Positions 15,643-53,800 of a DNA stretch of 64,000 bases are shown piece after piece. The DNA comes from Ascidiella aspersa. Its lineage: Eukaryota. Position numbers and translations under genes: made by a program. The stretch's first letter is position 1. Every line of letters starts with the position of its first letter. The notes below the pieces were generated by a model. The model searched no databases and had not been told where the DNA came from. It was given only the letters and a program-made list of their open reading frames with translations. The stretch covers positions 7,502,001 to 7,566,000 of the forward strand of contig OZ004610.1 in NCBI GenBank assembly GCA_963924565.1. Direction: 5' to 3'.

Positions 15643-15780
15643 GCGAAATGCGGCGAAATGCGGCGAAATGTGGCGAAATGCGGCGAAATGCGGCGAAATG
15701 CGGCGAAATGTGGCGAAATGCGGCGAAATGCGGCGAAATGCGGCGAAACGTGGCGAAATGCGGCTAAACGCGGCGAAATG
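15643..15780 (+). repeat. 10-bp minisatellite (CGGCGAAATG), about 14 copies, with a 40-bp higher-order period
   Basis: Read directly. The TGGCGAAATG variant recurs at 15671, 15711 and 15751. Confidence 0.95.
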
Positions 15781-17785: not shown

Positions 17786-19228
17786 TGGCCAAGTCTATTG
17801 AATTACGTGCGTAACTTGGCCTCGACTGTGAATTCCAGCGCTTCTTCGACCGAGGTGACGCAAATTGGAGTCGTTAATTGCGCGGTGGAGGGGGCTTATT
17901 TTTTAGGACCAAGTCGGACCTTTGGGTGAAGGGGGTGGGGGTGGGGGCGTGATTCGATTGGTTCTGACCTCCCAGGCGACGCGACAAGAAGCCTTAAATA
18001 ATTCATCCCCGCCCACGACACACCCCTGGGCCTCGCCCTCGGTCACTTGTTGATTTTTTATTGTTTCTTCTCGCCGTTGTTAGCGGCACTTTAAAGCTGT
18101 TTAGCGTTAGCGCGTCTTGGCTCCGCAATCGATTCGGTCTCCTAGAGCGAGTTTATGCGGCTCCCAGGGTCGCTTAACGAAGCCTTTTGTCGAATCGAAG
18201 GGGAGAATTAGGAGGGGGAGGGGCGAGATTTAAACTACCGGCGAAACAATTGGCGCATTTTGATTGCTCGCTCGATCGAGCGGAGTAAAAAAACGTAATG
18301 GGACGGACGGCGAATTTCGACGGAGAAATTGCTGGCGGTTTAAAATAGTTTTTTTCATTATGTCAGTTGAAAATAGGGTCCACATGAAAACCGGCCGAAA
18401 AATTGCTTTAACTGAAAGTAGTAAAGCAAAAGTCTGCAGTATGATAATAAGAATAAAGAGAGGTGTTTCATAATAACCTCAGTCCTTATTGTGTTTATAC
18501 TATATACACTTATTTTTGACATTAACAAAAAGAAAACATTGAATGCGGCCAAATAATGTGACCGACCTGATTATCAAGAACGGTTCAAACGTTTAAAGCA
18601 TAGTGGGCCATTTTGACGAGGTCGATACAATAAAATTAGAAACAAGACCAATGCACTTAAGCCAGTTAAGAACTAATTTGTTTGCAAGCACGCTCAGATT
18701 TTACAAATCTGTTTTTACTAGCATAAGGCTGTACTAAAAATATTTGAAAACGTGAGTGGAAAATCAAATAAATGTTAACTGAATTTTCGCCCTAAACTTA
18801 GATATCGTAGTAAAGTGCGACGACCTGCAAAACAAATTATCCTTTAACTGTCAAGTGCATTATTTTTTCATTCACTTGTTGTAGCCTATTGACAATTTGT
18901 CAACAGCCTACCGGTCAGTGGCTCGACCTTGACTATGATGTGGCCTAAAACTGCGTCACGGAACGTCATCAGGGATGCCTCGTACGTCATAATGCAAACA
19001 AAAAATTTAGTTTAGCTCTATTAACGAAAAATATATATGCTCGCTGTCCCCAAAGACTCCTCCCTGTGTTCCGTTAAAAAATTCATCGCTCCGGTAAGTA
19101 AATTATTATCGTTTCACTCCTGCGGTCAGCATACCATTCGCACGAAAAGATTTTGCCCCCGACAATTTTCCGTCTAACAATTAACTATTTTTTCAACCGT
19201 GCAACCCTGGCGTTTTTGGTGGGCTTTT

Positions 19229-30742: not shown

Positions 30743-31577
30743 GTAACTAATATCAGCTGGTTTTACAGCGGTTCAAAGTGTTTTAATCGTTTTAATGGTA
30801 TTTAACCTCTTTTTATGAATAAAAAATTGGAAAAAATGTGCATTTAAAAAAACATTTATCCCAAAATTAGCCTTAAGCAAAAAAACGCATCTTGTTTGCA
30901 TTTTCAGTTAAGGTAAATAAAACGTAGTAAGAAATACGTCGGTCAATTCGATTTTATAACCGATATGCTGGCAACCTGGCAGGCTGGCATGTTATGGATC
31001 TGATTTAAAACCATCAAGGTTACAGCGGGAAGGTGTTTTTGATCAAATTCATGTTATTTTCATTCTATTTTACATATGTTGCCTAAACAAGATAAAACAT
31101 ATAGAAGGGTTGCTTGTTGCTCGTTACATTGACTATCTGAAATGATGAAATCACCTAATACCCAAAAATGATGTAAACAGTTTGGTATAAAGTCCTTTAG
31201 AATTTAGATATATTTAAAACACAGCACGAATAACTGAAAGCACGTGGTATAGTATATGGGTTGGTTTTGAAGGTAAACATGCTACTTTGCAACGTTAAAA
31301 TGATTTATTTGGTTTCTCTTTTGGGTCGGTTTAAACTTTGAAAGGTTAAGTTGTGTAACAGCCAATTGATTAAATTGGTATAACTTTTGGTTTGGTATTT
31401 AGGTAAGTAAATCTAATCAAAGATACTATATTTATCATTAATTTAACTAGCGCAAATTTGTACTGAATAAATTGGTGTCACGTTAGTTGGTTTTGAAGAG
31501 CAAAATTTTGCGGTGTTAAAAAGCGCTTTTGAAATGACTGACAGTCCCGCCTTAGTTACCTTTTCGTTTATTTTCAG

Positions 31578-33762
31578 TCAAATCTGCGACGGCGTGTTCG
31601 ACTGCCCGGACCTTTCCGACGAGTGCTTCTGCTACGACGTGGCGCCATCGGCCATCTGCCGGCGCACCTGTTTCTCGCAACGTACCGAGCGCTGTCCGTG
31701 CGCGGTCGGCCAGGTCCCGTGCATACTCGAGACCGCCAACGCGACTGATTCATCGGCGGGAAATCGTGCCCGAAACGCCGCTGAGCAAATACAGTGCGTA
31801 GAGGTCGGGCGCTTCTGCGACGGGACGAGCGACTGCTTGAACGGCGCCGACGAAAGATTTTGCAGCGGCGGCAAAGCGGCCTCGTGCGGCGCCGGCGGCA
31901 ACTGTCACGATGACGTCACTGCCACGTCAATGATGACGTGCTCGCGCAACCGCGACACGCCTTACCTGCCCAAGTACGCGCGCGCCTGCGACGGAAAGCC
32001 GGAGTGCTTTACAATGGAGGACGAGTGCGAGGTGTGCGAGCGGCCCTTGGAGCACTGCGCCAGCCGATCGGTGGACAACATCTTCACCTGTAGCGCGGGA
32101 ACCTTACCCGGAATCCTGGTCTGCGACGGCTTCAGCAACTGTCCGGACAACAGCGACGAGCTGAACTGCCGCGATCGCTTCGTGTGCGGCGGCGGCGAGC
32201 GCTACAGCGTCGAGACGGCGCGACGCTGCGATTTCAAGGAGGACTGCGCCAACGGGACAGACGAGCGAGGTTGCGTTAACACCCATTTCTACTGCGAAGG
32301 CGGCGAACCTCCATTTGTCAACGTGCGGCGAATGTTCGACGGCAAGCAGGACTGTGACGACGGCAGCGACGAGTGCCCGACTGGGGTCTTTAACAGCTCG
32401 GTGTTCTCATCAAAAGAATACCTCATTAAGAACCACTTTCTCAAGGGCATGGTCTGGGTCATGGGCCTACTGGCGGTCGGTGGCAACGTAGCGGTTATGG
32501 TCAACACCGTTCGAAATCTTCTTAACTCGGAACGCCGCAAGTTAACCAAGGTGGCGGTAATCTACAACTGCTTGGTGCTGAATCTGTGCTGCGCCGATTT
32601 CCTAATGGGCGCCTTCCTAATCGTGCTTGGACTCAAGGACGCCCTGTCAAGCGGCAACTACTGCCACGAGGACCATTTCTGGCGTTCAGGGGCTCTCTGT
32701 TCAACGCTGGGGGTCTTGGCCGTTCTTTCAAGCGAGGTTTCGCTGATGACGCTAGCCATCTTGTCAACTTACCGAGCGTACTGCGTAATGCGACCGGTAC
32801 AGAGCCGCGTGCTTAACGTTACCACCACTATGCTGTTCGCGGCTTGCACTTGGCTAGCAGCCGGGGTTATCGCATTTTTACCGTTGTCAGGCGCTTTGCG
32901 TGACTACTTCATTTCTCACGCTTGGGTCACGCATAACCCCTACTTCAAGACAGACGTGATCGACAAGCCCGACTTTGCCGATTTCCACGTCACGCTACGC
33001 AACTACGTCAACGTGACGTCACCGCTCGAGGTTACGTCACACGCGTGCGAGCGCGCGCAAGGCGGCGCCTCGTGGCACTGCGCCGGGCCGACGTTGGCCC
33101 AGTTCGATCCGGAATTTGGCGTGGTCGGCTACTTCGGCTACTACAGCAAGCACGCCACTTGCCTGCCCAAGCTGTTCGTATCACGCGGCGACGTTGCCTG
33201 GCAGTTCTCGATCGCCGTGACGCTGCTCAACTTCCTGCTGTGCCTCTACATCGTGCTGGCCTACTGCGTCATCTGCCGCCCGCGCCAAATCAACAAGACT
33301 GCCTTCTCGAGCCAGAGCACGCGCAACATGCAGAAGAAGATCGCAGTGTTGGTGGCGTCGGACTGCGCCTGCTGGCTGCCAATATGCACCATAGCGTTCC
33401 TGTGGTTCGCTGAGGTACAAGTGTCCAGCATTGTGTACGCCATCACAGCCGTGGTGCTGCTTCCCATCAACAGCGCGCTCAACCCGCTCTTCTACTCGAA
33501 CGCGTTGCACAATCTAGGCCTAGAGCTGCTCGGTTTCGCGCGCAAAATAAATCTCAGCGGACTCTGTTTCTTTGCCGGGGGTGGCGGCAGCGGGGCCGGG
33601 GGGGAGGGGCGCGGGTCGGGCGGCGCCGGTCGGGGCGTGGACCCGGGCGGGAACCTGCTCGAGGCCACCGATTTCGAATTGCATGCGGTATCAAGGTCGG
33701 AGTCCCGACTTGTGACCGAGCACACGTTCGTCGAAGGGCCGCTGAACGAGTCGATCATTTAA
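31578..33762 (+). CDS. LDLa-GPCR terminal exon H: about 6 LDLa modules plus the complete RXFP/GRL101-like class A 7TM domain and a Gly-rich tail
   Basis: Acceptor ttattttcag| inside the 749-aa ORF. LDLa CDG..C.D.SDE motifs; hinge FSSKEYLI; TM1 GN; TM2 NLCCADFLMG; TM3 C..G.LAVLSSEVS; TM6 DCACWLP; TM7 LPINSALNPLFY; stop TAA at 33760-33762. Confidence 0.95.
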
Positions 33763-34143: not shown

Positions 34144-35904
34144 TATATCCAGCGGTTATTACAGCATACTCATGGTGAAAAGCTGTTTCTTTTTTAACCG
34201 CACTATTATACTGGTGCAAAGTTGGCTGTATAGGTCCTTTGTTATTAGAACCAAAATCGCACCCCTTTTGAACTGTTTCAATATTTTTAAGGGATGGCTG
34301 CTTAATGTTTCAAAGCGATTAGTGGTTGTTTCTAGGATAAACCATGACAAAACATTCAAAGAAAATCGGTTTAAAGTTCGTTACAAAGACTGGTCACTAA
34401 GGAATGATTTGACAAAAAGTTAGACTGCGCTGTTTTAAAGTACATCCGCAGTTCAAAACTATCATCCCACCGGCTGCCTTTTTCTGCGTCGGTTTTTGGG
34501 AGCATCCGTGACTGTAGCGTGTTCTTTGATGTACGACTTTGGTGATGTTGTTATGTGCCTGTCGCTGTCGTGATCGCTTGTTCGCCTCGAAGTTAGAGCG
34601 AGGTGATTTTTTAAGTTTACTAAAAATTCCACTCTTAACATAAGTTCCCTTTGAAACCTGATCAATCGATTAACCCAGGTTTTCTTTCGTTCTAGTCCAG
34701 TGACTGTTAAACAAGTTACCTTACTGTCCCCTTTTGACTTAGGTATTTAATAGATAACCCATTAAAGTTTTTTTTCTTGTCAGTTTGGAATTTTGGATAG
34801 GCATTGTTTGTAAATATAGGTTAGACATTTAATCCTGAAAAGTATTCTAGTAAACATTACAGGGGAGTTAAAAGATTTCAAAGCAGTTCTTATTTACCTT
34901 GCGATTGCACACAAAAATTGTAGTTATACACGCTTGAAATTTCGACTGATTTTTGTGAATGCTGTCATGCGTGATCCTGTCAAACTGCACTGTATTTAAG
35001 TATGTTGCAAAATATTTTTTCCAACGATTTTTGCACATCATTGCAATTCGCAGCACCGCAAATGGGTTGTCCTGTTTCTCAACCTTTTTTTCGCTGCGAC
35101 ACAAATGTTAGGCGTAAGCAAACGAGCGAAGCTTTGGCGACGGTTTTTCTAAACTGATTTTTTTGTATGCGAACTCAATATAAGACAAATAGTAGATTTC
35201 GAACTTAATTATTATACGCCATGTCTTTGCATTTTTACGCCGCTTTTCTACGTTTTAGAGATATTTAAACCAATCCCACCAAAATCTAACCATACTGTAA
35301 ACTACCGCCACTCGGGAGGCCCAGCCAAATTGAACGGCGTCTCAATTTGGTCCATAGGTTGAGAAACACTGCCCTAAACCGTTCCAAGCGTTCTTGACAT
35401 TATAAGGCAGCTCGGCATGGTTCAGTTCTTCAGTTGTGTTTATCTTCTTCAAACATTTTTCTTCATTTTGACTGCTCGCAGTGTTGTTTTGTCATATGCC
35501 CCCCGCTACTGTGATTCGTCGACTTACCAACAAGCTGTCATCGTTGTACGAGATATGCATTCGATTTTATTATTTTTCCGCCAGGCATTTGCATGAGTTT
35601 TTTCACGCACTCAGTTGTCGGAAACCGGCTATCAAAACTTTAAGTTAACAAATTCAAAAACAATGGTTCACGCTATAAATCTTGTTATAGCGCCGTGACC
35701 CAAACCCCTCCCTTCCCCCTAAATCAAAGGTTTGGGAAAACGCCTTAACTGGGAGTCTCTAAGGTGATACAAGTTAGGAAAATGCATCGGAGCAGAAATT
35801 CTATGTACAATGTAAAAATATCAATTTAGAGAAAAATTATGCAGATTAAGTAAAACTATCTTTAAAATTGCACCATTATTCGGTCCGCACGTTAGGTGGA
35901 CATC

Positions 35905-35910
35905 TTTATT
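35905..35910 (-). terminator. Candidate polyadenylation signal AATAAA for the minus-strand gene
   Basis: First minus-strand AATAAA (plus-strand tttatt) that I found downstream of the stop codon at 36732. Confidence 0.35.
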
Positions 35911-36731
35911 CATGCTAAGGGCAGAGAAAACATATGTGAGGTTATGACAGGTATAAGGTATATTATAGTGTTAAAAAGAACTTGGTATACCAGGCAACAA
36001 TATCAAAAGTTCTCAATGTTAAATATGGGTTTGCAAAAGTAAAAATAAAAATAATTTGTATTAACCGATCGACATAAAACATTCAAACAAAAGTTAAGGT
36101 AGACCTAATAAAGGTAGCTTCGTATAAAGATATAATGACAAATTTGTTGATTTGTAGATTTCTTTAAAACAGATTTGTGTCAAATGTTAGATAATGTACC
36201 CATTTTACTGGGAACTAAGCTTGTAAAACTTCCGATTAAATTATTTAACATTGGTTGTGAAAAATGACTGAAGTAGCTCTTCTAATTTTTGTTATAAATA
36301 AGGTGTTGCTAAGTTCCATTGTCAGGTAATTTGACTAAACGTCAAGTCAAAATGAGCCATTGTCAGTCCAAAAATCTAAAAAAAACAACGAACAACAAAC
36401 TTTTCCTCCGAGCAACCGACTAGGGATGTAAACCAGTCAATAACTTTTACAGGTAGTGCTTAACCAAACAAAATTAATCGTTTCCTAACGTTCTAAATCA
36501 GCGAACGCTAAATTTTTGAGCTACCTTTTGTATAAAAAATACAAAAATTTACATGCACATACTTTCAAACTAGTTAGAAGAAAAGTAAGTATTTCAGCTT
36601 TAGATAGTAGAAAAATGCGGTTCATAAGGCAAAACGATTTAAAGAACGATTGACGAAGCAAGCGCTTGATTCAAAATGTTGGTAAACCATCTTTAAAGCA
36701 AGTTAAACACGCTTCAAGTCAGCCAATTGGG

Positions 36732-36848
36732 TTAAAACTTGGTTTCGTCTTCAAATCGATATTGGTTCGACTGTGTTTGGTCGTCCTCGTACGGTGTAAT
36801 GCCGTTGTTAATCCGCTCCTCGTCTTCAGGGCTAAGTTCGGCCGACTG
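36732..36848 (-). CDS. Orphan type I membrane glycoprotein, last coding exon (QSAELSPEDEERINNGITPYEDDQTQSNQYRFEDETKF*)
   Basis: Acceptor cccttttttcag| with a NAGNAG alternative 3 nt downstream; phase 0. Acidic tail ending T-K-F then TAA. Confidence 0.82.
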   Translation of the reverse strand, partial: QSAELSPEDEERINNGITPYEDDQTQSNQYRFEDETKF

Positions 36849-36887
36849 CTGAAAAAAGGGTGCAATTCAGTCTGTAGTGGTGGCTGG

Positions 36888-37169
36888 TAGTGCCGGATTA
36901 ACCATTAGGCTACTAAGGCTATAGCCTTAGGCTTGAGACCTTGACAAAATCGGCCCTTAGTTTTTTTAAGGGTAAATTTTTTTTAAGGCTGATGGTGATA
37001 TAGATCCGGTATCAGTACAGTGCAGTTTTTGCTTAAAAACGAATGACTAAGTCGAGTCAATGTGTGCCTGGTGTGTGAGTAGAAAAATAAATCGTTTCAT
37101 TCATGCTGTCAAATTAGGCCCTCCTCTAGTAATCAGCCTTAGGACTACAGTACCCTTAATCCGACCCTG
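36888..37169. mobile_element. hAT (Tip100-like TIR) MITE
   Basis: TIRs TAGTGCCGGATTAA / TTAATCCGACCCTG. Perfect 8-bp TSD GTGGCTGG at 36880-36887 and 37170-37177. Confidence 0.85.
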
Positions 37170-40100
37170 GTGGCTGGGAATGTTCAGCATATATGGACCA
37201 CAGCCGAAACTCTGTATCAAACGGTAATTGTTAGATTCTAGGGCGGTATCGGAACCGATCTGTTACCCAATTAGTTGTGCATTGCAGCCACGGTTTGAAT
37301 CTGAAACCCAGCACTTTCTACCTTGAAGAGAAAATTTCAGAATTTTTTTTTAAATTATACCTTACCGCTGAACAACAAAAGTATGCTAATACGGCTAAAT
37401 TGCCTTGTACGGTCAATAATTGAGCTAAATCCAGCAACATTTTAAGTTTTCAAATAAGATATATTTCACTTTATGCACTTATACTATTTATCGTACTTAA
37501 TACAGTTTCTCCACCGCGTAGCGATTGCCAGTTTGCCTGCGAGAGCAAACATACGATTTAGCCCCACCTTGCGGTCAGGCTCTTCATAGATTACAGTGCC
37601 GCACGGTGGCAGTGGTAAGCTTGAGGAGCTGTAATGCAGAGTGGGGTTGTCCAGTCCCAACACAGGACTCAGTCCAGCTTTCTTCTCCAGGTGGTCATTG
37701 CCGGTTAAACAACAATTCTGTGAAATTAATATACATGGGTTTGGGCAACAAACCAAATAGACGTTTTAATTTTGCTTAAAATAAATATATACGTTGGAGG
37801 AAACCAGTTTTCAAGATTGAACATTCTAGAACAAATTCACACCATAAAGCATCCCGAACTCTATTGAAAGGCTAATTGGCATGTTGTAGCATTTTTTGTT
37901 TTCTCTTTGTGAGCATAGTTATGGAAACCTGGTTAAAAGTAGTTGCAGTATAATATTAAAATACTAAACCGAACATGAAAATAGTAATTTAAACCCTATG
38001 GTGTTGATAATATTAGAAAAAAGTGTGTAACCTGTGGTTTACCCCCAAATGTTCATGTGTGTAAATCAAAATAAGTGTATACTGTATATTTGTTTCTTTA
38101 ATAAGCTTGCGGGCCGAATAACGGAACACATTTCAGTGGTTCCCAACCTTTCAAATGTCGTGGGGCTCTAAGCCCCCTCCCCCTCGCTAACTATTAAAAA
38201 CACGATTTACAACAGTCAGAAAAGAGGTCAATAAAGTCATAATATAAAAACAAATCATACAAGTTTAACTGGCTAATAAGTAAAATAAGATAAGTTTGCG
38301 GCTACCTGGAAACTGCACTTGTTCCTTCTAGGAAACGCCTTTATCACATTTTCACTCGACCTTTTTGGCTTTGAGATTCAAGAGAAAGTTTCTTAGCTTG
38401 TAAAAACCGAATGGTTTAGCGTTTACGTATAGCCACCGTTTCAAAATTTAGTGGAATATACATTGGACCTTTGTTACGCATACTTAAAATTGTTCGTGAA
38501 ATTTAGAAAAAAATACAAGAGCGGTGACCTCATAGAAGCTTTTACGGCGCCGGTATCGTAATGGAACGGGCCGCCGGTTGATTAGGAAAAGGTCACTTGA
38601 TTATGGCGGCCGCCAACGACAAAAACGTTTTAATGCAGTAGGGGCAACCGCAAGCCAACCGGCTCAACCCTTTGTGAGTTCATAACAAAACCATTGTAAG
38701 GTCACATTAGAGGGGGTGACCGAATAATGTTGATTGTGTAGTTCCAGAAATAAGGAAAAGACTTTTGAAATTGCAAACCAGTAACCAAACCTGCTTTAAC
38801 TTGGCTGGAGGCAGTGTCAGCTTTTTTTAAAGGTTTGGTTTGGGTGACCGCTAAGTTTCATTTAAATACCAAAAAGTTGCAAGTCCAAAATTTGGGAAAC
38901 CGCTGGAGAAATTGGGATATTTGAGGTTATTAGTTTTCATGTTTGAACAAAGTTATTCTATTGCTATTTATTTAAATGGAATTGAGTCTTTTTAGTATGC
39001 GTATTGCAAATATATTTTTTTTAACAAAAATCGATTTGTGTATACGTTAGGGGCAAAGAGTAAAATATTCGAATAATAAAATAAAAAAAAACATATTTTG
39101 ATGTTCCAAGTTGTTTTGATATTAAAAACAGACTAGTCAACATATTACAATTTTTAAATAAGCGTATAGCACCTTCAAAAGGGCTTACAATTTTCGCTAC
39201 CAAAGCTACATAAAACGTTTTTCACGTACGAATTTACTGTCGATTTTCCATATCCTTATAGCCTCCGGTATAATCGAGTAATTCAAGACAGGTTTCAAAT
39301 AAAATAAGACCTTTTTAAACTGCGCGAAGGTTATATAGTTTTATCTAAACAATTCATTTCCGATTCTTTGGCAGCAGTCAGCACCCCTATAAGGAAACCT
39401 TAGATGAAAATAGTATTTTCGCATATAATCTAAAAGTCAAAAACAAGTGTACAATGCAAGTTTTGCGAACGCAAAGCTCCTCTTTTACACACACCTTTGT
39501 ATTTGTTTTATCCTGGCCTAAACTAGTAGACCAGTTGACAGGCGGTTGGCTCTGACACGCGAAAAGGCAGTTAAACAAAACGAATATTGACAGGGCGGCG
39601 ACTGTTTAATGTAAGCTTGCCAGACGTAACTCAACGGAAACGAGTATCAGCCTCTAATGCACGGATCCCCATTAAGCAATCGGGAAATTCGTATGTTGAG
39701 CATGAAAACTCAATTCGCAGTCGCTGTAGACCCGCCCACACAAAAACAGGCCCGAAAAGAGTCCGTCAAATTAAGGCTAAATTGTACAGGAAAGCCGTCG
39801 CTAAGCCGAAACGTTAGAAGCGATTGGGTTTGTTCGAAAGTTGAAACGCAAACGGCGGAAATTCGGCGATGCTCAATTTCCAGCAAAGGCATTGCCGATG
39901 CCCGGCGCGCAACTGGTAAGGCCCCGGAAGGGGAACTAATCCCGATCGAACGGCTTTCCTATGATACAGTCGCTCAATTGCCCTCGTGATATGGCGACCC
40001 CCAGTTCGAAATGACGTGGCGATTTTGGGATGTGGGAAAATTTTTAAAACATTTTACGCGTTTTTTCTACTGTAGCTGTTTACCACCTGGGTTAAAAGTT

Positions 40101-40437
40101 AAACAAAACCGTGTCAAATTTACCCTGATTTTGCTGACTGTTTAATGCATATTCTTTTCAGCATGTGCCTACGCAACACCCAAATTTCGGCTTTTATACT
40201 TTTGCTGAACGGTGTTTTGCTTATCCGATTTTCTATTAGGCTCAACCTAGGTTTTTACTCACATCAAGAAAGATCTAAAAGCCTTAAGGTGCAAGAAACT
40301 TTATAAGGACCCCTAATTTGTAACGGAATTGAAAGGAGAAGAAAGAATGCTCAGAAGGAGAAGAAAGAATGCTCAAAAAAACTAGACAACAGGCGAGAGG
40401 TAATCGCCAACCCTTATGTATAATTCATGTTTCGCAC

Positions 40438-40560
40438 CTTTCTTTTTTTGCCGAGGCACGTGAGCACAATCAAACCGGTCAGCAGCACCACGCCCAACAG
40501 CAACAGAACAATCCAAAGCGGCAGAAGCTTGGTGAAGGTGCTGGTTCTCTCGTTTGAAAC
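40438..40560 (-). CDS. Orphan type I membrane glycoprotein, transmembrane exon (VSNERTSTFTKLLPLWIVLLLLGVVLLTGLIVLTCLGKKRK)
   Basis: Acceptor ctttcggtcttccag|, donor AAG|gtgcga; 123 nt, phase 0-0. About 24 hydrophobic residues followed by a KKRK stop-transfer cluster. Confidence 0.87.
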
Positions 40561-40788
40561 CTGGAAGACCGAAAGGGTTTCTTTTTTATTTCATTGTAAT
40601 TGCAAAAAATTTAAAAACCTGTCGTACAGCCTTTACTAATTATAATTCGTTTGTGATTTAGTAAAAATTTTAATGCTGTGTCAAACGTAATACGAATGGA
40701 AAGATGTTTAAAAAGGGTCGTGCTCCTTATATCTGATATGAAACGTGCAAACAACATAAATATTGCATAAGCTGTCTACAATTCTTAC

Positions 40789-40841
40789 CCGGAATTCTTC
40801 AACGCAGCGCCGCATCAACCCGTCGACTTTATCGCAATTTC
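40789..40841 (-). CDS. Orphan type I membrane glycoprotein, stalk exon (GNCDKVDGLMRRCVEEFR)
   Basis: Acceptor tttttctatcag|, donor CGG|gtaaga. 53 nt, phase 1 in and phase 0 out, exactly what is needed to bridge the flanking exons. Confidence 0.82.
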
Positions 40842-43800
40842 CTGATAGAAAAACATGTCTTTAATTAACGCAAAAGAAACGATCGATATCGTTCTTTTGG
40901 AAATTCAGATAATAGGTAAGACAAGCAAACCTACAACCGACAACTTTGAGAGGTTGGTTTTCTAGGCAAAATAGGAGAGAACACAAAACTTAACCATACT
41001 AGGCATTATGGCATTAAAGCCATGATAATAATGTCGGAAAGTATAAAATGCTAGAAATGATACACGTATATGAGCACGCAATTTTTCAAATGTGGGCCTC
41101 TCAATTTGCTTACTTTGCTACTTATCATCGATTCGAAATGCACGCCGCGATGTGGGTATAACAAAGCTTCAAGCCATTAGGGCCGTATACAAAGGCTAAC
41201 AGAGCGAAATTGAAACCGCCCAAATGTCCATTTAACGATGTTAGTGCCATTAACCAGAAAAGCAAACAGGGCCGGGGACCGAATACAGCCGATATCGATT
41301 TTTCCCCGCCCGTCGGAGCCGCGCTTTCCTGCTGTTCAGCCTTTATCCCGGCATCGATCGATATTATACTGCTTTTGAATGATGCACAAGCTTGTGACGT
41401 CATAATCAAGTTAATATCGAGTCGCTCCGGCGAGGTCTGCTGGCTAGATAAGGCTACCGTCGCCGCCACGCAGCTAAAACGCGCGGGGGCTCTTTAAGGC
41501 AACATAAAGGGGAAACCAAACCTAATGGTACACGGCTGCTGAGCGTATGCGAGTCTGTAAGGCAAATAAGCTAAACGGTGTAATTTTCTTGTCAGAGTGT
41601 TTTTACGCGATCGTTCCTGTTGTACTGGAAGCAAATTTGATGGGAAAGAACTACAAAGATCAGGAAATTGATTTTCGTTTGATATGCCGTAAAGAGCAGA
41701 ATGATTTTAAAACCATTACAACAATATTATGACCCCAAATCAGAAATACTTAAAAGACCGCCCTAAAGAAATAAATGAAAAACATCGCGAATAAAATGCC
41801 ACATATCTGTACGTGTTTCACTTGAGCCTTGCGCAGAAGCTATTGTATAGAGTAGACGGTAAAATCCCAAACCCCTGGAGAAACAACGAAAGCTTGCGTT
41901 GATCTTCGAAAACTACCTTCGCAACTCGAGATACAGGAGGACGACACCAAGCCCAATTAAATCAAGTGACATCACTTTGCACAGAACAGGCATTCATTGT
42001 ACGTTGATGGCGCATTTTTAAGCTGTGTTCAGATTTAAGCAAAAGTGTAGTTTCGGGTTCAACAGTTAATGGGCGCAATTGAAAAAAATACTTTAAGGAC
42101 TGCGTGTCAATAAAATTGAGACGCCTGTCGCATTTTAAAAGTGCCTTTTTTAAATCAATTTGGCGCGCCAAACAGAAAACAAGTCAATTTCAAGTGTAGC
42201 GACTTGAAAAACACGCACATTTGAAAAACATAGAATGTCTAAAATTTGTTAAGGCTTAGTTTGGAATTTTTATGATGTAAAGGTCGCGTGAACTCAAACA
42301 CACATGTAAGACAGTTTGCCCTTCTCTGAAAGGCACAGTTGTACAGAACGCACTTCAGTTTATACAGAATAAAAAGAGGTTTAAGACGTTTTCTGTGACG
42401 GCGCCGCCAATAAACGGAAAGAGTAAAAGGGAGGATTCGCCAAAACCCACTGATTGTGTAAACAGGATTTTTTAGCAAATAATTTAGAGTGTGTTTTTGT
42501 CCTGTTAAGGAAATGCACTCAATAACCATTATCGTAGCCTGGTATATTTAGTGTTAATGTTAACAAATCTTTAGAAAGCTTATGTACGGTAAGTATAGTT
42601 AGTATGAGTAGTTAAGTACGAAATATCACATTATTTGTTATAGTATTTTTTTGCATTTTCGCTGCATTAAAGGGGTGCTCAAGCATTTTAAGGAAACATA
42701 TGGGGTCCGCAAGGGGGAAAAGTTTAAAAACCACTGACCGAGACCAAGCTGATACCAAGTCTAGCGTTTCGCTTTAAGATTCCAAAACTACTTCTACTCA
42801 TTCAGAATTCATGCAATTACATCACAGACGCATTGGAAAACAAGCAGCTGTTAGCTTGCTCAAAAGTCACCGGGCCATATCCGAAGAAAAATAGGAAAAA
42901 ACGCCTTTAAACACGTACGCAAATCGCGAAGTAAACAAAACAAAACACAACCAAGCAAAAAAACGCGTCGAGCCGGGGCAATTTACTCACTACCACTTAC
43001 CGGGTCTCAGGTCAAGCTGTTGAGGGTAGCGCGCGAAATTGCGGCTTTTCTGCGATGCCCCGGGGGCCATGTGTGCAGGGAGCAATTTTCGCGCGTCGCG
43101 TAATTGCTCCCCGCAGCCGCTTGCGCAAATAAACCAAAAAAAAAAAATTGGCGTCCGGATTCGGGTGGAACCTGATTGGACCGGAGGACGGCCGTCCCGA
43201 CCATAAAATTTGTTATTTTATTCAACGATGCGAACGTGAACATCAATCTTCGTATGTAGGCCTTTTTTGGCTAATTTAGGACTCGTTTCAAGGTAAAAGA
43301 AATGCCTAGGGTCAAACAAAAGTAGGTAGCATATTTTGAACGTTTCGAATAATTCTTTATCTATTTTTAACATTATTAGGCGCCACCTATACGTCTTCAA
43401 CTACTACCTCCATCTACTGTAACCCATGAACGTCGTTGCTTCCAGGCACTGTTAAAAATACGAAATATAATAAAACAATTGACGAGCTTTTGCAAAACCG
43501 AGCTATTAAGTATGCAACCTTTGACTTCTGACAACACAACAGGCATTTTTAAGGCGCTGTGTTATTCTTTTAAAATAGGGCGTCTTTGAAGAGTAACCTA
43601 TATTAAACTTGAAGTCCTTGAATTCACTGGGTTAAAACTGAGCGAAATATCATTTATAACGTCTTGGAGTACCCGCTAGAATTGTGAGTTTATTTGACTT
43701 TAATGCAGGTGGAAAAGATAACTTTAAATGTGCATTCCTCTTCCTTTAGACCAATTTGGGCACCGCTAAAATAGCTTTATTGTTGCTCCATTTACCCAAG

Positions 43801-46048
43801 TACAGACATGGTATATTATAGGGTAACTGATAAGTTTTGTTTTTAGTAAACGCATGAAGATCGCAAAAGGTAATGCAGCTAAATATGAAGAAAACGGAGG
43901 AAATTTAATTCACATGACAACAGGTCGCATATAATTCGTACATATTTCTCACGATTTTAGAGTGCCTGTCATACTAAGTTCCTTCGGTGCGTTAATTCAT
44001 TTCAAGATTATGAACATGTGTAAATCATGTTGCACATACAGAAAAGCCTAAATGAGATTTTTTCCACCGCTGAGAGATATTTTCCTTGTTAGACAGCCAT
44101 CGCGTCTTATTATGCGAAGGTTAACAGAATGTCATATGCATACAAGACATTTACTTATAGAAACAGACATTTACGTCATGTTAAGAGTAAATTATTCATC
44201 GCGTGGTCTTTAAACAGCAACACACGGCTTTAAAATGTCAAAAGAGCGTGGAAGGTTTAGAACCATCTTTGTTGAAATATGTTTTTGTTCAAAATCGGAG
44301 AATCGGATGACACTGTAAAACGACAAATTATATTATATTATATTACTGAATTTTGTCGCACAACAGTGTCACCTGATTTTAAGGTTTAAAATATTTTTTT
44401 TCGAAGACAAGTGAAAATCAACACCTTGCAAAACCATTCGTCCACCAATGCAAGCTCAAACAGGGGCCTGATTTCTAATTTTTGTCATGAAACTCATGTC
44501 CGCCACACCTTATAGGATAAGCAGCACACAATCGGATACCCAGTAAAATCCTCGAAATGTAAGCAAATCCCTGAAGCAGTGCTTTAATACAAAGACCTTT
44601 AAAATGCAAGGAGCTTTTAAATGCTGTCATGGGTGCCTTTCGAGGGGGGACTTTAAGTCAGCACGCGAAAGGCAATTACAGTCGCGTGACCTTCGAAAAG
44701 GCAAAGTCGCCCAGAGATCACAAAGAGAAAGCGCTTGGTTGCAATCAGAGGTCGCACGAAGGGTTTCAAGCTGCTCTGCGCGCATTACGACTGCGTTTAG
44801 CCATCCATCAAGATTGCGCAACTTTTCAAAACGTCGATCGCGCTTCGGTGTCGGCGGCGGGCGTCGAATCGATCAAATCCTGCGGGCTGCCTGATGCTGA
44901 TGCACTTTGTCTTTTCGCTGACGTAATGCTGATAAGGTTATAGGGGCGACGCCACTGTCGCTGCTATACTTTCCAACGCGCGTTTCTTAAAATGCTTTTG
45001 GAACATCTCTGGATTTTAAATAAAATTGTTCACCTGAAAAGAGGTATAATATATATGCCAATGTTTCGACCACCCCACTCTGGTAATCTTCAACACGGCA
45101 ATGACCTTGCAACTCTGCTCGAGTTATATAGATGTAGTCTAACATTCAATAGAAATCTTTGTCGAACGAACAACTTTATCGGCCACTAAATTTCCACACT
45201 ACCCTAAGGGTTGGGCAGTTGATTGTCGAAATTCCTCTTGGGGCGTTGGGGGTATTTCCCGAAACTAGCAGCTACACCCATGCAGGCGTACATCGAAACT
45301 CTGTTCGCAACGCAAGCCCCTCAGAGCGCGTTCGCAAAAACAAGACACTTCCTCATTTGTCAACAAAAGCGACCTGAATTAGACGCATGCAGAAAGGCAG
45401 CGGTAAAGGGGTGGGGTGAAACCAGGGGGGGCGTTGCATGACAGGGTGACCGCTGATGATGCAGCATCTACTGTTGTTTATATACGTCGGAGGCCAATTC
45501 GAGGCTGCGAATAGAACATGGGGAAGCAGTTGCTCAAATTGCGCACGCTTTGTGTAAACAAACATTACGTAAACAGAGGCCCGGAACATTGTTTGACACA
45601 GCAAGGGAACTGATTTTTTTGTCCGGGGCTTGCGCAAGACCTGCGAAAAACGACGACAACAACATGACGTCATGCAGTTTGCCCCACCCTATCCGATTTT
45701 GATCCCATAACAGTCAACTGATAAAGCACAATATTCAGTTCAGGGACATGGTTTTGCTTATGAACTGAAGATATAAAATGTCTATTAGGTAGTGTTTTAT
45801 AATGTGAAAATGCAGCCGGTCTCGTTAAGGTTTTAAAATATTGTTGGTTTTATCATTTTTGGACACATTTTCTTTTGTTTAATCATTGGAAAATTGCATA
45901 CAAATTTTGTTAACCAAGTATTTCATGTAATTTAAATTATCAGTAAAGTTCCCTTGAACGTGAAAAGTGTTTATACCTAATGTTTAGAAACCCCTTCTTG
46001 ACAAAAAACTTCATAATTTTAATGAGGACCCAAAAACTCAATGATTAC

Positions 46049-46193
46049 CTGTGGCACAAATGTCAGCTTTGTAAGTTGACCGGCCAGGTCCGCATTCGAC
46101 ACTAGAATTTATTTGTGAAATCCGTATGGAGACCGCTGCGACGCATTCCGTACAGTTCACGTTCCTCCAATCTTTTTTCGAGCATGCCTTAAC
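46049..46193 (-). CDS. Orphan type I membrane glycoprotein, Cys-rich exon (VKACSKKDWRNVNCTECVAAVSIRISQINSSVECGPGRSTYKADICAT)
   Basis: Acceptor ttatatcttccag|, donor G|gtaatc. Only one frame is open (phase 0 in, phase 1 out). 5 Cys. Confidence 0.78.
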
Positions 46194-46436
46194 CTGGAAG
46201 ATATAAATTAATATATACGATAAAAGCACAGCGACGACTAGTTCGTTTCAAAGTTGTTAAAACGACTAGGCTAGTATATGAGATCGGTATGGCAAACAAC
46301 ATTCAGTTGCAAATTTTATGCGTTAGAGTAGACATTTTACCTACGCGTTGTTTAATCAATGGTAGTTGAAGACAAAAAATGCACTTTTGCAGCCCAGTGT
46401 TTACTGTGTACTTTTTGAAATCACTAGTGATTGTAA

Positions 46437-46618
46437 CAGAGCTTCTTAACTGGTGCGCCACAAGCTAAAAATATATTATAATATATAAAACATAGATATT
46501 TTTACTATTCGTTTCGTTTTAGCTTATTAATTCCACAGTACTTTCGCTCGCCAGGTGCGCCGCCACGTTTTAAAATGCCTCTGGTGCGCCCTGAAGTCGA
46601 AAAGTTTAAAAAACACTG
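46437..46618. mobile_element. Degraded hAT-type MITE with GGTGCGCC subterminal motifs
   Basis: Ends CAGAGCTTCTTAAC.. / ..GTTTAAAAAACACTG and three GGTGCGCC motifs. No clear TSD. Confidence 0.5.
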
Positions 46619-48479
46619 ACTATACTAATGCATGATTGTTAAAAAGTATGTCTGAAACTTAGCGCAGGTGGCAGTTTCAACTCTTTAGACTAGCTTATTT
46701 TCATTCGCACAACGGTCAGAGTCAGGCGGGCCAAAAAGACAACTTACACAGAGCAGAGGTGTATTTAAACGCTTAAAAGTTCAGTCAGAATGACGAAACG
46801 GGCCTAAGGTAAACGGCTTGTATTCACAGGCGCAGCAGCGACCGGCATACTTTCGCTTTCTAGGGGCAAAAAAGGGGGGAGGCGGGTCTTTGATGTTTCC
46901 GACAGGGTAACTCGTGCGTGACGCATTCCAGCTTTTCACTCTACAGTGGAAGGCGACGAAGCGAAACGAGCTAGTGCCCAGTGAAGCGTAACCAAGGGGC
47001 CGCCTAATGGTCGTGCGGTTCAACCCGGATCTAAACAGGCTTTTCTCGTTGGGATTCATTCCAGTCATTCCGCGCGCTGTTAGGGTTCACTGTAATGACA
47101 CAAAACACCACATTGGGGAGTTTCGGCCGGACTTACCATGTCGTGTAATCTAATGGAACTTTAGGATGAGGTATTTTATAACACCTTTTTGTTTATATGA
47201 CTTTATTCAAAAGTGTTCTAATGCTTAAATTTATATACTGTAATTCCCCTTATGCTTTTGGTTGCCTGCAGAATTTTTTTTTACATTTTTCGGTTTCTAT
47301 AACATGTTTGCTTGAAACAAATGTGGGTTAAAGAGTTTCCAGGTAACAAAACCTTAGGTATACCAAAAAATAAAATAGCAAAAAGAACTAATATTGGTCC
47401 ACGACATCAGTAAAATAAGTACAGTTTTGTCGTGCATAGTAAGTGGAGTAAATAGGTTTGCAACTAGATGGGGAAAACTATAGCGGGTTTGACCTAAATG
47501 GAAGAACTGTATGACCAAAAGGTAAATTTGAGTGAGACACGGGTCAAAATCTCTAAACACACCTAAAAACACAAACATTTCCGATTCAGCTAGAAAGGTC
47601 CGGCGAACCACAAAGAAAAAACCTCAAACAGCTGTTTGAAGGGACACCTGCAGAGCAAATAAACGACAAACGGCGATGGGGCGGCCATTAGCGTCAAAAA
47701 TAATGTGGAGACTCCGTTTATTTGCCTGTTTCGTGTTTGCCGTGCGTGTCTTAAGGACAAAAGGCCGTGGCCGTTTCCGCCCGTCGAAGAGATAAGGCCA
47801 GGCTCGACTGTTTGGACAGGGCGTACCAAGAGCGTCACGGCCGCCCGGTTCTTCCCCTTACCCCATTCTTGGGACTTTTTCCCAAATGTCAGTTAAAAGG
47901 TTAAAGGGGTCCGCGATGGCTTTGAAAATTAACAGATGTATTTAAGTAAAATTTTTTTGGGGTTTAAATATTTTTTTGTTTAAAAGCAAATCTTTAAATT
48001 TTAATTCGACCATGATTTTGCATTTAATATTTGCTAGCAATTGTAAATGTACTGTTTGACAATAGTAATGACGTCATTAGTTGGATGTTATTACGATACA
48101 AATACGCGATGTATAAAGCAACGAGTATGGCCGTCCGATTCGATACCACCAATAGATTTGACCACAGTAATGACGTTATTCGAAATCACTTTGAGCGTAC
48201 GTGCTTTTCCCCGAAGAATATTGGGTATCGGAACTAAAGCTACCAGGTAGCGGATATCCCCATAGTCTGTAGACCACTATTTGCTATACGATACGATTTA
48301 AATCTCTAAAATAGCAACTTTGAGTGATGAGGTTTAGACGAAGCAAAATCCTTCGCTCCAAGCCACAGAATGCTCGGTATGTTTTTGAGAGCGAAACAAT
48401 GGCGCCCTTGTTGCTAAAATGTGCCTTCAAATGTAAGCACAACGTAAATGGCAGTCGCCGTCATCGGGCATCTGCGCAC

Positions 48480-48509
48480 TGACGTCACAAAAGGTCATGC
48501 GTGACGTCA
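48480..48509. promoter_or_regulatory. Pair of perfect CRE palindromes (TGACGTCA)
   Basis: TGACGTCA at 48480 and 48502 in a CpG-rich intronic patch. Function is inferred only. Confidence 0.35.
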
Positions 48510-49245
48510 GGATTCGGGAAATTCCCCGACGCTAAAGCTGAGTGGATTTCGCTGAGCGAGGATCTAAAGCAGCGCCGTGTGCGATGTGCGCTTAAGTGGT
48601 TGGGAATTCAAACAGACAAATCACGAAGTGGTAGGGTCAAGCTGTTCCAGTGGTTACGTCATAGCCTTGTTTTCTTGCGAGATTGTAAAGGGGAATTTGG
48701 CGCCTTAGTTCGTCTATCAAACAAGCCTGACCATGTGATGATTTATAGTGTTTCTGTGTTCGGGTTCATTTAACTTGGGTGACTCAATTCACGAGGGACG
48801 ACAACATTTTACTTTTTAGGCGTTAGGTAAAGACGTACGTGTACCTAATTCACTGTTTGTCAAATTACTTCACTTGAATATTTGCGTAAATTAAATCAAG
48901 TTGCTTAATTGAGTACTGAAAATATTTTCTTACCGCAATTAATGTAATAAATGTACACTATGCTGTTTACTTTGTTCAAGTTTCAAGGAACGCATTCTCC
49001 AATTTTTTCAATTTAAGGAATATTTTTGGATGTCAATGCTGTTTATGTAAACTGGCAAAGACTTGGACTGGCACTTGACTGCGATTTATTGAAAATAACT
49101 TAAGTTGGACTTTCATTTTTGCAAATGTCTTGACTCGTATTTCGATCACTTTTAAATAACCTTGTTTGAAACACTGACTAAAGTCCCACTAATCAGTTTA
49201 ATTTCTGGAAGCTGTCTTGAGTTACAACTATTAATTTACACTTAC

Positions 49246-49350
49246 AGTGGCAAGAAACGCCTGGCTCTCGCAAAATCTCGTCCCTCCATTGACGCTCGAA
49301 CAGTTTTGATCCCACTTTGCGTGGCTGGAATTCGTGGAAAAGGCAGTCAC
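49246..49350 (-). CDS. Orphan type I membrane glycoprotein, first identified exon (VTAFSTNSSHAKWDQNCSSVNGGTRFCESQAFLAT)
   Basis: Minus-strand acceptor tttatttgttgaaatacag| and donor ACT|gtaagtg. 105 nt, phase 0-0, two N-glycosylation sequons, in frame with the next exon. Confidence 0.7.
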
Positions 49351-50678
49351 CTGTATTTCAACAAATAAAATTTACAGCTTATTGTTATGAACTGTAGGCT
49401 CTTACATGTAAAATCGTGATGAATCAAGCTTAAAACACGTTTGCTGACTACAACCGTTTTGTGCGATTTAAACACATTGTTGCGAGCTATGTCAGCTATG
49501 ATCGTGGTTAACCAGGATTCCGTATTAAACGTTGGTGATTTAGTTCAATCGTTTAAGTCATTCCTCTATTTATAACAGTTATATTTCAGGATCAATGCGT
49601 TCAAACGTGTATAAGGTATAAATAAAACACGCTATTAGAGCCGCCAGTATGTTGTGGCAAAGCAAACCTTTTTTTGGGCATAGGCATGCTGCCTGTCACG
49701 CATTGACTATAGGCGCGCTTCTAGAGTCTGAACGATAATACTGGTATCCATGTTTTGCTGTTCGAAATCTATTTTGGGATCAGACCACCTGCTTTGCTGA
49801 GAAGCGCGACTCAATATTAAAGGGAGTGGAATAATGCATACATTGCGCCATTTAATCGTTTATGCCAGTCTGTGTTTACGTTTGGTTGCTTAAACTTTAC
49901 GCTGCCCAAGCCTCGTACTTCTAGTTTAATTTGTCGAGCGGATCTAACTCCTTTTTCAGCACAAGTTATTTTCAACAATCTCGTGCTTAGAGACAAGCTG
50001 TAGCTCAATGCTTGCTGCACTTGGCGTAATCTGTGGGTGTCGTATTCTGATTATCCTAATGTCCAATAAACGTCTTGCTTAAGAAAGAGAGTTGAAGTCA
50101 TTTTTTCTACTCCAGGTTGTGTCACAAAATATTTTTTGTTGATAGTCGGATTTTTTTTTTTATTATAAATCGGAAAATCCCGTTGTAGTTTGGAACACAC
50201 GGATTTTCCTAGAAATTTCAATAAAAAGAATAAAGTGATAATATAAGGTAAGATCGACATTTCAGTTGGTACTGCTGGCAATGTGAAACGACATTTTTTT
50301 TACTTTGACCAGATGAAGCACACTGGCGCGAAAGCTTGTCAAGATTTTAATGCAATTTTTCATTATACATTGCTACTTGATTTCTTTAGCTAGTTGTCAC
50401 GCAGAAATGAAAAAATCTGAAAATTATTCGGCTGTTTGCACATTGCGGGATGGGAGTTGGGTTGTTAAATCGTCGAAACATCGTTGCGACTGAAGCATGC
50501 TTTATCTCGCCGCAAACTAGTTCAGTCCGACAGCGCTTAACAACCAAACAATCAAGTCGACAAAAGCATCCAAAAGTTGAAATATGAGCGTGGTGGCTTT
50601 CAAACTCGGTTTAATATGAAAGTTTCCGCATTCGGATCACAAATCTGTCGCACAACAGAAAGTGAAACGGGAGAGGTT

Positions 50679-50731: not shown

Positions 50732-50774
50732 GAAGAGAGAACTGCAGAACCAGGGTAAACTTCGGACATCGGAG

Positions 50775-50885
50775 CATAATGGTTGGAGGTTGTAGTAAGA
50801 CATAATAAGAATATAAAAGCCCATTCTTGAGCAGGTAGCATTTTGAACGTTTCAAATATCTCCTTATTCATTTTCAACATTTGAT
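50775..50885 (+). repeat. Dispersed repeat fragment (GCATAATGG..GGAGGTT..GTAGCATTTTGAACGTTTC)
   Basis: Homologous segments at about 52480-52590 and about 43320-43375. Confidence 0.7.
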
Positions 50886-53800
50886 TTTATTTTGCACAAT
50901 ACACGTTTTTTTTAGTAATTTCAATAAAAATATCAAAGCCATAATAATCTATGATGTTATTTAAATTTTCAACATTTGATGTACTTCTGTATGCGCATTG
51001 ATATTCTTACCAGTAAACTTCACCCGTCGTTCCGTACATCCTACACGAAGAGAGATTGACAGATAAGGCATCGGTGTAAGTAAATATTTGCACGGGCAAC
51101 GCTTTGGTCGGCGGGCGCGCCGTCGGACTTGTTCCGACAGGGCGAGATGCGACGCCGGGCTATTTGCCCACATTCTCTCGCACACAAGAAGACACGTACA
51201 ATTGTACATCTACACGTACGTCGTAGGCTACATACATAAACACAAGCGCGACCATCGTCCGAGCGAAAATCGCTTTCTGAAAAGGCAACTTCCGTCCAGG
51301 AAGAGATTTAAGTAAGTGCAGTCACCTCTGAATTTAATTACTTGGGTCATTGGGTCCAAATAGCTGACCCAACTTGGATAAGCGATTTTGGCTAAAAATA
51401 TATGTGTTTTGGTAAAGTCAACTACTGAAAATAAGTTCGCTAAACAAAGTTCAAAGTTCGCTAAACATTGTTTAAAATAAGAAGCGATAATAACGTTGAT
51501 TTTGATCGTTGTTTAACGCACTTTTATTTCCTTTTTTGTGCCGTTTTAATTTGCGTGTTGTTTGTTGTGGTGTTGTTACATTCCCTGACGATGGCATCCT
51601 GGATAGATAGGTTAAACAAAACCAGTATTCAATTTACAACCAAAAATCTTTCGGGACCGCACTGCCAGTAAATTCATTTGAAGATCACTTTTCTTATGGC
51701 GACCTTTCAACGTTAAAGTCGGTCTTGTAGTCAACAATTAAATTAGGTTGCGCTGAAATTTTGCGGTTTCTAAGGCGAGTAAGGATGATACAAAAAAATT
51801 AGGGCCTTTCGAGTTTAGGAGGAGAGGCATTTAAGCGCAATAGCTATTGCCCAGTTTAGATGACTAATTCAAAGAACGACTGAATTCTTCTTTACCCCTA
51901 TTATTGCCCAACCGCGAGGGATATAATATGCACATCTTCTGATGTCTTACTATCCAACAAGAATGTTACACTTATTACTATCATGTTTTCACCCACAAGC
52001 AAGTTTACACAACGTTTGGAATTGCTTTCGTCCATCATATCTGGACCACCAAAATAGGGCGAATCTTCCCTTTGAGGGTTGTGATATCAATGGCTAAGGC
52101 AAATTACAACGAGGCCGGCAGACAAACAGACAACCTAGCGAACTTCCCGAAGTAAAACAAGACGCGGTCAATTTACGAGCGGGGCCCGAGGCAATCGCTT
52201 TGATATCGCGCATTTGGATCACAGATCCAAAGAGATCGTATCTCTTTGCTAGACGCTCAGGCTGCGCCAAAAAACGTATTGTTTTCGGTCCCGCCGCTCG
52301 CCGTTTTCTTTGCAGTTCAACGATTGGAAACCGTGGTGGTTTATGTACTGAAAAGCAAAAATCAAACCAAAATAGTAGATATACGGGTTAAGTGGGGGGA
52401 CGATCGTTTTCTGACTGGTCGTGCATTAACCCATTTGGTCCGGTCCAGTTTCTTTTTGTGTTTTCTTTTTACCCTATGGAGCATAATGGTGGAGGTTTTA
52501 GTTGGGCCTAATAAGAATATCAAAGCTCATACAGAAATATGTAGCATTTTGATCGTTTCGAATAACGTTTTATTTATTTTCAACATCGATGTTCCATATG
52601 GGCTTTGATATTCTTACTACGTCCAACGGTATGGAATGTGCAATATTCGACAACACAAGTCCGTTTAGGTAAACTGGTGGTATTGGCATTCCAGTAGCGG
52701 TTTTAAGGGTTAACGTTTTGCTTCAAGGGCTTTTTTAAAGTGACCAAGTACAGACTGACCGACGCTGACCATCGCTTACCGTAACATGGCCGTTGCACAA
52801 AGTAAGTTTTTCATCTCCGCTTTCGTTGAACGACTTGACCTCGACCCATGGAGAACCTCTCGTCGGGGGTAACGACACACTTAGCTTTAAATCGCTATCG
52901 TAGACCTAAAAAAACAAGATTTGCCCGGTGAGGTATTAACCCAACACCATGTGTTCTCGCGCAAAAACGCGTCAGGAAAAAGGTTAAAATTAATTTGCAT
53001 TTTTAATACTGTTTTTTGTCGAACGCTTAAATGTGCGTATACGCATCTGCTTGGCCTGTACACCTATAAAAGAAACACCGTCACGCTTAAGGGCGTTAGC
53101 CCAGTAACAAAATGCACTATTTAAATCTGCAAAACGTTAAAATATGAGCAATCCATCAAACCTGCGAAGGGCGCCAAGAAGGGAAAAAAGGCGTGAGCTA
53201 AAATACGCACCAGAGAGCGAGTCGTTATCTCGGGAAAGAAAAACAGACAAGAAATTCTTGGCGCTTTTCGAACACTTTACGTCGTCAATTTTCGGAGCAT
53301 TGAACTTACGCACAAACAAAGTGACTTAGAAATAATTAGCCCTGCGACCCCACTCCCCGCGTTCACTATAGGTCATGCCAAAAATTCGGGCTGGTTGACC
53401 TGTTTGAACAATTTGAAGTATACTTAATACAGATTATACGCCAAATTTCCAATTAATTTTACGTGTGCCTAATATAAACTGGTAGCTAATTCTGTGAACA
53501 ACAATGAAAAGTGAGATGTTAGCCTTTTTTTAGTTGGGCAATTGTTTTCCAAATCGAAAAGTACCTCAAAAACGTAAAAAAATATCTAAAACAACTTTAT
53601 GTTTTAATAACTTTTTTAATGTTTTAATAACTTTTTTAACCTTGGAGGTTCTTTTGGATTTATTTACATGAATTAAACACAACTAACAGTTTAAAAAAAA
53701 GGCGTTTCGAGCTAAAATGATTAATGTTAAAAAGCACCGGTAACTTTACTTTATCTGTTTAAAGACTAATGCGTTTGTAAAAGAGTAATGGAAAATTAAG

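Follow-up and report, generated by a model that had tools for sequence, protein, structure and literature searches.

In a 64,000-nucleotide (nt) stretch of the genome of the ascidian Ascidiella aspersa (GenBank assembly GCA_963924565.1, contig OZ004610.1, positions 7,502,001 to 7,566,000; G000:C4:7502001-7566000 in the searched genome of 308.6 Mb and 75 contigs; hereafter, the window), we identified a real, transcribed and under-annotated gene that is single-copy, spliced and encoded on the minus strand. The product is predicted to be a type I cell-surface glycoprotein that is not assignable to any family. The reading we favor, with a probability of roughly one half, is that of an orphan surface glycoprotein whose cytoplasmic tail likely anchors it to the cortical actin via an NHERF-type PDZ adaptor and, when phosphorylated, likely recruits SH2 adaptors.

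The initial annotation of the window, made from the nucleotide sequence, proposed five small exons (denoted here A to E) that chain in phase. All five have AG/GT ends and, when joined by a script, encode 180 amino acids without a stop codon, so that this part of the model stands, as does the layout of the protein. The direct joining of the exon encoding the transmembrane helix (D) to the last exon (E) does not, because spliced RNA reads connect exon D to an additional exon, X. The original exon list thus was incomplete, omitting at least one coding exon (X) and, probably, three or more upstream exons. The features of the gene, in the order of transcription, are as follows (positions are those of the window, extended past its end where necessary; ranks are from an exon scan with 77 candidates).

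Weak candidate exon W, G000:C4:7572959-7573069 (71069-70959, past the window end), minus strand: phase 1-1, hydrophobic start, no in-frame ATG; rank 29 of 77.
Candidate exon Y, G000:C4:7572375-7572445 (70445-70375, past the window end), minus strand: phase 1-0, 23 amino acids, strong splice sites; rank 4 of 77.
Candidate exon Z, 52780..52905, minus strand: phase 0-0, 42 amino acids, with a tenth cysteine and a fifth N-glycosylation sequon (NES); rank 9 of 77.
Exon A, 49246..49350, minus strand: phase 0-0, 35 amino acids, two cysteines, two sequons.
Exon B, 46049..46193, minus strand: phase 0-1, five cysteines, two sequons.
Exon C, 40789..40841, minus strand: phase 1-0, two cysteines, membrane-proximal.
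Exon D, 40438..40560, minus strand: phase 0-0, stalk, transmembrane helix, juxtamembrane cysteine and KKRK.
Exon X, absent from the earlier model, 37568..37717, minus strand: 150 nt, phase 0-0, 50 amino acids, with Cys-Cys by the membrane, DNPTL and IYEEP.
Exon E, the last coding exon, 36732..36848, minus strand: phase 0, acidic tail with YEDD, ending in ETKF and a stop codon; tandem acceptor at 36848 or 36845.
Likely 3' untranslated region, 35566..36731, minus strand: AATAAA at 35910 and 35571; RNA depth 0.28-0.45 in one orientation.

The model comprises 230 amino acids with exon X, 272 with Z added and 332 with W and Y, none of these versions containing a stop codon. Altogether, the coding exons number 7 or more, possibly 10, and the last four span 40841-36732 (~4 kb). 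Candidate Z joins exon A in phase, and its cysteine renders the count even. Exon X is included among the open frames of at least 80 amino acids in the window and exons A to E are not. Within the genome, exons B and X match only themselves, and Z yields one further match (E 0.16).

A heuristic exon scan of the 36-72 kb region produced 8 minus-strand candidates scoring at least 10, of which 7 (C, Y, D, X, B, Z and A) chain in phase. The plus strand yielded 3, and 20 block shuffles averaged 1.35, with no more than 5 in any of them; because the scan weights were tuned after the exons were already known, this excess over the shuffles is no independent test. The top-scoring candidate, 43171-43001 on the minus strand (171 nt, phase 1-1), would fit in frame into the intron between exons B and C; it contains a poly-T run and has zero RNA depth in the bin extending to 43039, the next bin being filled with repeats. 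Given the poly-T run and no clear RNA support, this candidate was set aside.

In RNA run X3, of which ~6% was read with a listing threshold of three reads per junction, the junction 37717|40438, from exon D to exon X, is spanned by five reads with three starts, all in one orientation, with GT-AG on the minus strand. These reads place a 150-nt, phase 0-0 exon between the transmembrane exon and the last exon, and with exon X included, the tail counted from KKRK is 92 rather than 42 amino acids long. Read depth is ~5 in exon D (at 40465) and 3 each in exons C (at 40830) and X; in binned data, exon B has a depth of 0.45, in one orientation, and exon A 0.09 in one read mapping and zero in another. 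Seven single-copy bins between 37.7 and 53.7 kb (37728-38391, 39720-40383, 40384-41047, 45696-46359, 47688-48351, 49016-49679 and 53000-53663), several of them intronic, contain reads only in the orientation of the spliced reads, so that the transcription unit likely extends beyond 53 kb; 13 of the 30 bins have no depth. The exon chain together with the minus-strand RNA bears out the original proposal that a Cys-rich glycoprotein with one membrane pass is encoded by a hidden gene on the minus strand. The region also contains very high-copy short repeats (~38820-38913, 43333-43360, 50771-50950 and 52500-52620), with summed contig depths of 7,000-65,000 versus ~50-100 for single-copy sequence and RNA reads in both orientations.

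The predicted protein is a single-pass one, with a Cys-rich proximal domain that is N-glycosylated judging by the sequons and a short stalk. Everything that was initially listed for it is present in the joined exons: nine ectodomain cysteines (exons A to C), four sequons (NSS, NCS, NCT and NSS), the transmembrane helix, the juxtamembrane cysteine followed by KKRK, YEDD, YRFE and ETKF. With candidate Z, the counts rise to five sequons and ten cysteines; the latter are spaced by 21, 9, 11, 9, 2, 16, 11, 4 and 9 residues and include a C-x4-C toward the end. The single helix has a 19-residue hydrophobic core with a mean hydropathy of 3.03. Exon X adds the Cys-Cys pair next to the membrane as well as DNPTL and IYEEP, which in the tail precede YEDD, YRFE, an acidic run and the terminal ETKF; read from the sequence, ETKF-stop fits the class I PDZ-type C-terminus (S/T-x-hydrophobic), as originally suggested. 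None of the four tail tyrosines lies in a canonical NPxY or YxxL/F signal. Folded alone, exon B gave a predicted local distance difference test score (pLDDT) of 52 and a predicted template modeling score (pTM) of 0.29.

The protein is an orphan: sequence and profile searches, nearly all of them exon by exon, found no relative, in agreement with the first reading, which recognized no direct homology. The queries were single exons of 23-50 amino acids and, once, a 92-amino-acid frame around exon X, so the power of these searches is low. A word-based protein search produced three candidates for exon X, none of which was scored, and none for exon B. A full HMMER search with exon X against 1.84 billion representative sequences yielded one match, to a repetitive unnamed singleton, which we judged spurious. 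Searches of PDB sequences with exons X, B, Z and E gave no matches, and that with exon A retrieved 9 IL-2 receptor alpha (CD25) chains at E 0.08-2.2; the best alignment, to the sushi domain, covers 24 residues (E 0.08) and is not significant among the five PDB searches, and exons Z and B have no sushi match. In the ESM Atlas, exon X hit only small C-terminal-domain clusters with low recognition, and exon B had no usable match; the single locus from a metagenome scan was ruled out as an off-frame match across a bacterial-looking gene. Pfam scans of the single exons found no family match. The protein collection includes Phallusia, Clavelina and Ciona proteins, yet contained no detectable homolog of the exons; an exon of the type II TGF-beta receptor of this genome is 87% identical to its counterpart in Phallusia mammillata, 79% in Clavelina and 76% in Ciona.

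Under the reading we favor, the N-terminus would be outside the cell, because the basic KKRK follows the helix, and the exposed part would form a compact membrane-proximal domain with five disulfides and five N-glycans. With no mucin found, this part may be a ligand-binding or adhesive domain, which would bind a partner on a neighboring cell or in the matrix, rather than a repelling mucin brush. On the cytoplasmic side, the juxtamembrane cysteine and the Cys-Cys pair might be palmitoylated, KKRK could bind ERM proteins directly, and ETKF could link the protein through NHERF and ERM to actin, placing it at an apical or microvillar surface. Once phosphorylated, the putative YxxP site IYEEP might recruit SH2 domains of the Crk/Nck type. 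A candidate adaptor is encoded at C3:29.04 Mb, where a NHERF-like gene combines an EBP50_C match (25.9 bits, cut-off 25) with a PDZ piece, one exon holding only part of the PDZ domain.

Several points weigh against this reading. Each binding step is deduced from short motifs, and initial-exon scans turned up no convincing ATG exon, no start codon and no complete signal peptide. The D-X junction is the sole one of this gene above the listing threshold, so that the RNA check initially called for confirms one of five core junctions, the other four, including X-E, staying below three reads, as did a D-E skip. Candidate Z has no RNA reads (the bin 52764-53427 has zero depth). The failure to place the protein in a family comes from searches with short single exons, and three-finger-like exons of the same genome likewise went without a Pfam match. 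Finally, among the 40 of 289 differences listed for two DNA runs, 5 are exonic and 4 of these change a residue, three lying just before DNPTL, which is consistent with fast evolution and not with strong constraint. This mostly non-synonymous variation, the lack of a homolog, and the low RNA depth with intronic reads are also what would be seen in a decaying pseudogene or in chance frames within a non-coding transcript. We consider such an origin hardly credible: seven candidates can be joined in frame with no stop between them, the ectodomain, transmembrane segment and tail follow in a coherent order, one spliced junction coincides exactly with the predicted sites, and none of those 40 listed differences introduces an exonic stop or frameshift.

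The same tail motifs could, alternatively, serve traffic, making the protein a recycling or endocytic cargo receptor. The NPTL-H-Y sequence can be seen as a degenerate NPxY, and the acidic E-x-E-T-K-F end could bind the PDZ domain of a sorting nexin; the PDZ domain of SNX27 prefers acidic residues at positions -3 and -5. We regard this version as unlikely, given the lack of a canonical NPxY or YxxL/F among the tail tyrosines, and a literature search for a connection between the SNX27 preference and podocalyxin found none. A traffic role is compatible with the actin anchor, the two not being exclusive.

The initial annotation compared the protein to the CD34/podocalyxin family, an idea that gains from exon X and loses on other counts. 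Members of this family possess an N-terminal S/T/P-rich mucin domain of 120-350 amino acids and one to three cysteine pairs in a globular domain (PMC10220851, Table 2), are encoded by genes of eight exons, the last four within 3 kb in human, and end in DTHL or DTEL (PMC2193439, Fig. 1 legend and Methods). The DTHL of podocalyxin binds the NHERF PDZ domain and its juxtamembrane region ezrin (PMC8227556), the tail of canine podocalyxin contains DNPTL (PMC4862332, Methods), and CD34 binds CrkL (PMC10220851, Table 3). The orphan resembles podocalyxin, endoglycan and CD34 in the type I layout, the Cys-bonded, N-glycosylated membrane-proximal domain, the basic juxtamembrane stretch and the acidic tail ending in T-x-hydrophobic, and resembles podocalyxin, in particular, in DNPTL.

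The DNPTL of exon X, compared by eye and with no alignment score, is identical to the 5-mer in the canine tail, and by the same kind of count starts 23 residues past KKRK here versus 18 past QRK in podocalyxin. The computed chance of any shared 5-mer with the podocalyxin tail is ~0.002-0.007, but this value understates the true one because DNP-type motifs are common in the tails of membrane proteins; DNPTL occurs twice in the 448,000 six-frame residues of the neighborhood. The C-terminus ETKF belongs to the same PDZ class as DTHL/DTEL and differs in its letters.

Together with the fact that the CD34 family was proposed before exon X was seen, these similarities count toward a diverged ascidian ortholog of CD34, podocalyxin or endoglycan, changed past detection, with the mucin domain lost or never present. 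We treat such descent as a tentative possibility. The analogy had been tied in advance to two features, a mucin region upstream and structural similarity to CD34, and the first was not found: the minus strand from 49351 to 135000 in extended window coordinates, which reaches past the start of the next gene at ~88-90 kb, has no Ser/Thr-rich mucin frame, a result that is provisional as the 5' end is unmapped by RNA, although the same scan did detect a T/P-rich exon of the neighboring GH9 gene. The orphan has 10 cysteines (9 without Z) versus the 2-6 given for the family in that table, and it further differs in IYEEP and in a three-exon tail. Scanned singly, five exons and Z, Y and W have no match to PF06365 (CD34_antigen), nor did the genome yield a candidate. 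The last four exons occupy ~4 kb versus under 3 kb in the human genes; ascidians show intron gain, which weakens the comparison of exon counts with the CD34 family. The genes for plexins, muskelin and MCM2, which we take to be neighbors of the human CD34-family genes (a literature search for one paper linking these neighbors found none), give a divided picture: C4 (35 Mb, 11% of the genome) carries muskelin and each of the 3 plexin loci, but none of them is closer than the 1.8 Mb of the nearest plexin, and MCM2 is on C7. No report of a tunicate CD34 or podocalyxin member was found in the literature searched, most subscription journals and supplements being outside its coverage. Part of exon B resembles a supposed endoglycan motif, but a literature search did not turn up that motif, and the resemblance carries no weight here.

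Given the missing mucin, the ten cysteines and the lack of a PF06365 match, we do not file the gene as a CD34-family member. On the best reading, the tail would work like that of podocalyxin in a protein that is not a sialomucin; the analogy suits the tail well but does not prove descent.

A third relationship, distinctly improbable in our estimate, would make the protein a kinase-less TGF-beta/BMP pseudo-receptor that works like BAMBI and whose ectodomain has a three-finger fold in diverged form. The ten cysteines and the C-x4-C near the end have a spacing like that of type II receptor ectodomains, and the protein shares with BAMBI and the TGF-beta receptors a Cys-rich region of ~100 amino acids and a single transmembrane segment and, with BAMBI, the lack of a kinase. 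BAMBI itself is reported to be absent from Ciona (PMC2657120, Table 1), so that its role would be vacant. In contrast, the Cys box of the orphan has no adjacent CC and reads CD rather than CN, and the tail is of the PDZ type. None of the 36 genome matches to PF01064 and 2 to PF06211 is at this locus. A profile built from nine tunicate three-finger domains (two of the nine rows being shortened) gave -3.5 bits, a score reached by 260 of 500 shuffles with fixed cysteines. Pairwise comparisons with three-finger ectodomains were significant in 0 of 10 cases; 0 of 4 between-subfamily and 3 of 3 within-subfamily positive controls passed, so the power of this comparison is low.

Several other loci encountered in these searches are recorded here. 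Most of the spurious PF01064 matches come from a tandem array of tRNA-Val genes on C3 (~10.49-10.69 Mb; L022 and L023), with ~200-nt spacing, mixed anticodons and 14 and 15 genes per 3.1 kb. Near-identical type I TGF-beta receptor ectodomain exons are present in two copies ~18 kb apart on C9 (16.79 and 16.81 Mb; L019 and L020). On C7 (~21.22-21.23 Mb; L048:2473-7639 and L049:1671-2192, plus strand), a gene encodes three Cys-rich repeats resembling three-finger (Ly6/uPAR) domains, along with linkers rich in Thr and a hydrophobic end. A gene similar to those of type II TGF-beta receptors is its head-to-head neighbor. Two frames of the repeat-containing gene were scanned, with no Pfam match.

The orphan gene is located tail to tail with a plus-strand G protein-coupled receptor with LDLa repeats, beyond which, on its 3' side, are an HCF-type Kelch gene and a Zic gene; the next gene on the 5' side is a plus-strand glycoside hydrolase family 9 (GH9) gene, with exons from ~88-90 kb in extended window coordinates. 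The neighbors are as follows.

LDLa/7TM receptor gene, window 6750-33762, plus strand: multi-exon, many LDLa repeats leading into a rhodopsin-type 7TM domain; last frame at 31471-33762 (Pfam LDLa, 7tm_1).
Host cell factor (Kelch_HCF) gene, L015:8771-9220, minus strand: downstream of the orphan gene (Pfam); usable synteny anchor.
Zic-type zinc-finger gene, L017:1200-2195, minus strand: downstream of the orphan gene (Pfam); usable synteny anchor.
GH9 gene, L004-L005, ~88-103 kb in extended window coordinates, plus strand (Pfam).
Retroelement frames, L006:423-3600, minus strand: integrase core and zinc-binding domains, immediately after the GH9 gene.

In the receptor gene, which we take to resemble RXFP/GRL101-type receptors without leucine-rich repeats, the LDLa and 7tm_1 domains lie within one 763-amino-acid frame, where Pfam found no such repeats. 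The neighbor at about -58 kb was initially identified as Snail, an identity dropped in favor of the Pfam assignment to Zic. Exons encoding a Cys-rich module, thyroglobulin-like when judged by eye, and a linker rich in T/P come before the GH9 gene. The genome also has a GH6 match, which, like the receptor identities given above, marks the host as an ascidian. Elsewhere in the window, tandem repeats at 16800-17873 and 15351-15849 create long spurious frames, and the GC skew is strong (0.37) at 17-18 kb.

An orphan, PDZ-anchored surface glycoprotein is useful for annotation. Were the gene to descend from the ancestor of CD34 and podocalyxin, it would be the first invertebrate member of that lineage, a mucin-less one, and the family would be older than the split of tunicates and vertebrates. 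The DNPTL tail with the NHERF/ERM anchor would then have preceded vertebrates, and the sialomucin brush would have been added later or lost in ascidians. We hold this scenario to be possible though doubtful. If true, it would separate the old function, that is, the tail and its actin anchor, from the mucin, would make the origin of a classic marker of blood stem cells and endothelium testable in an ascidian, and would provide a genetically defined CD34-family gene for ascidian blood progenitors and epithelia.

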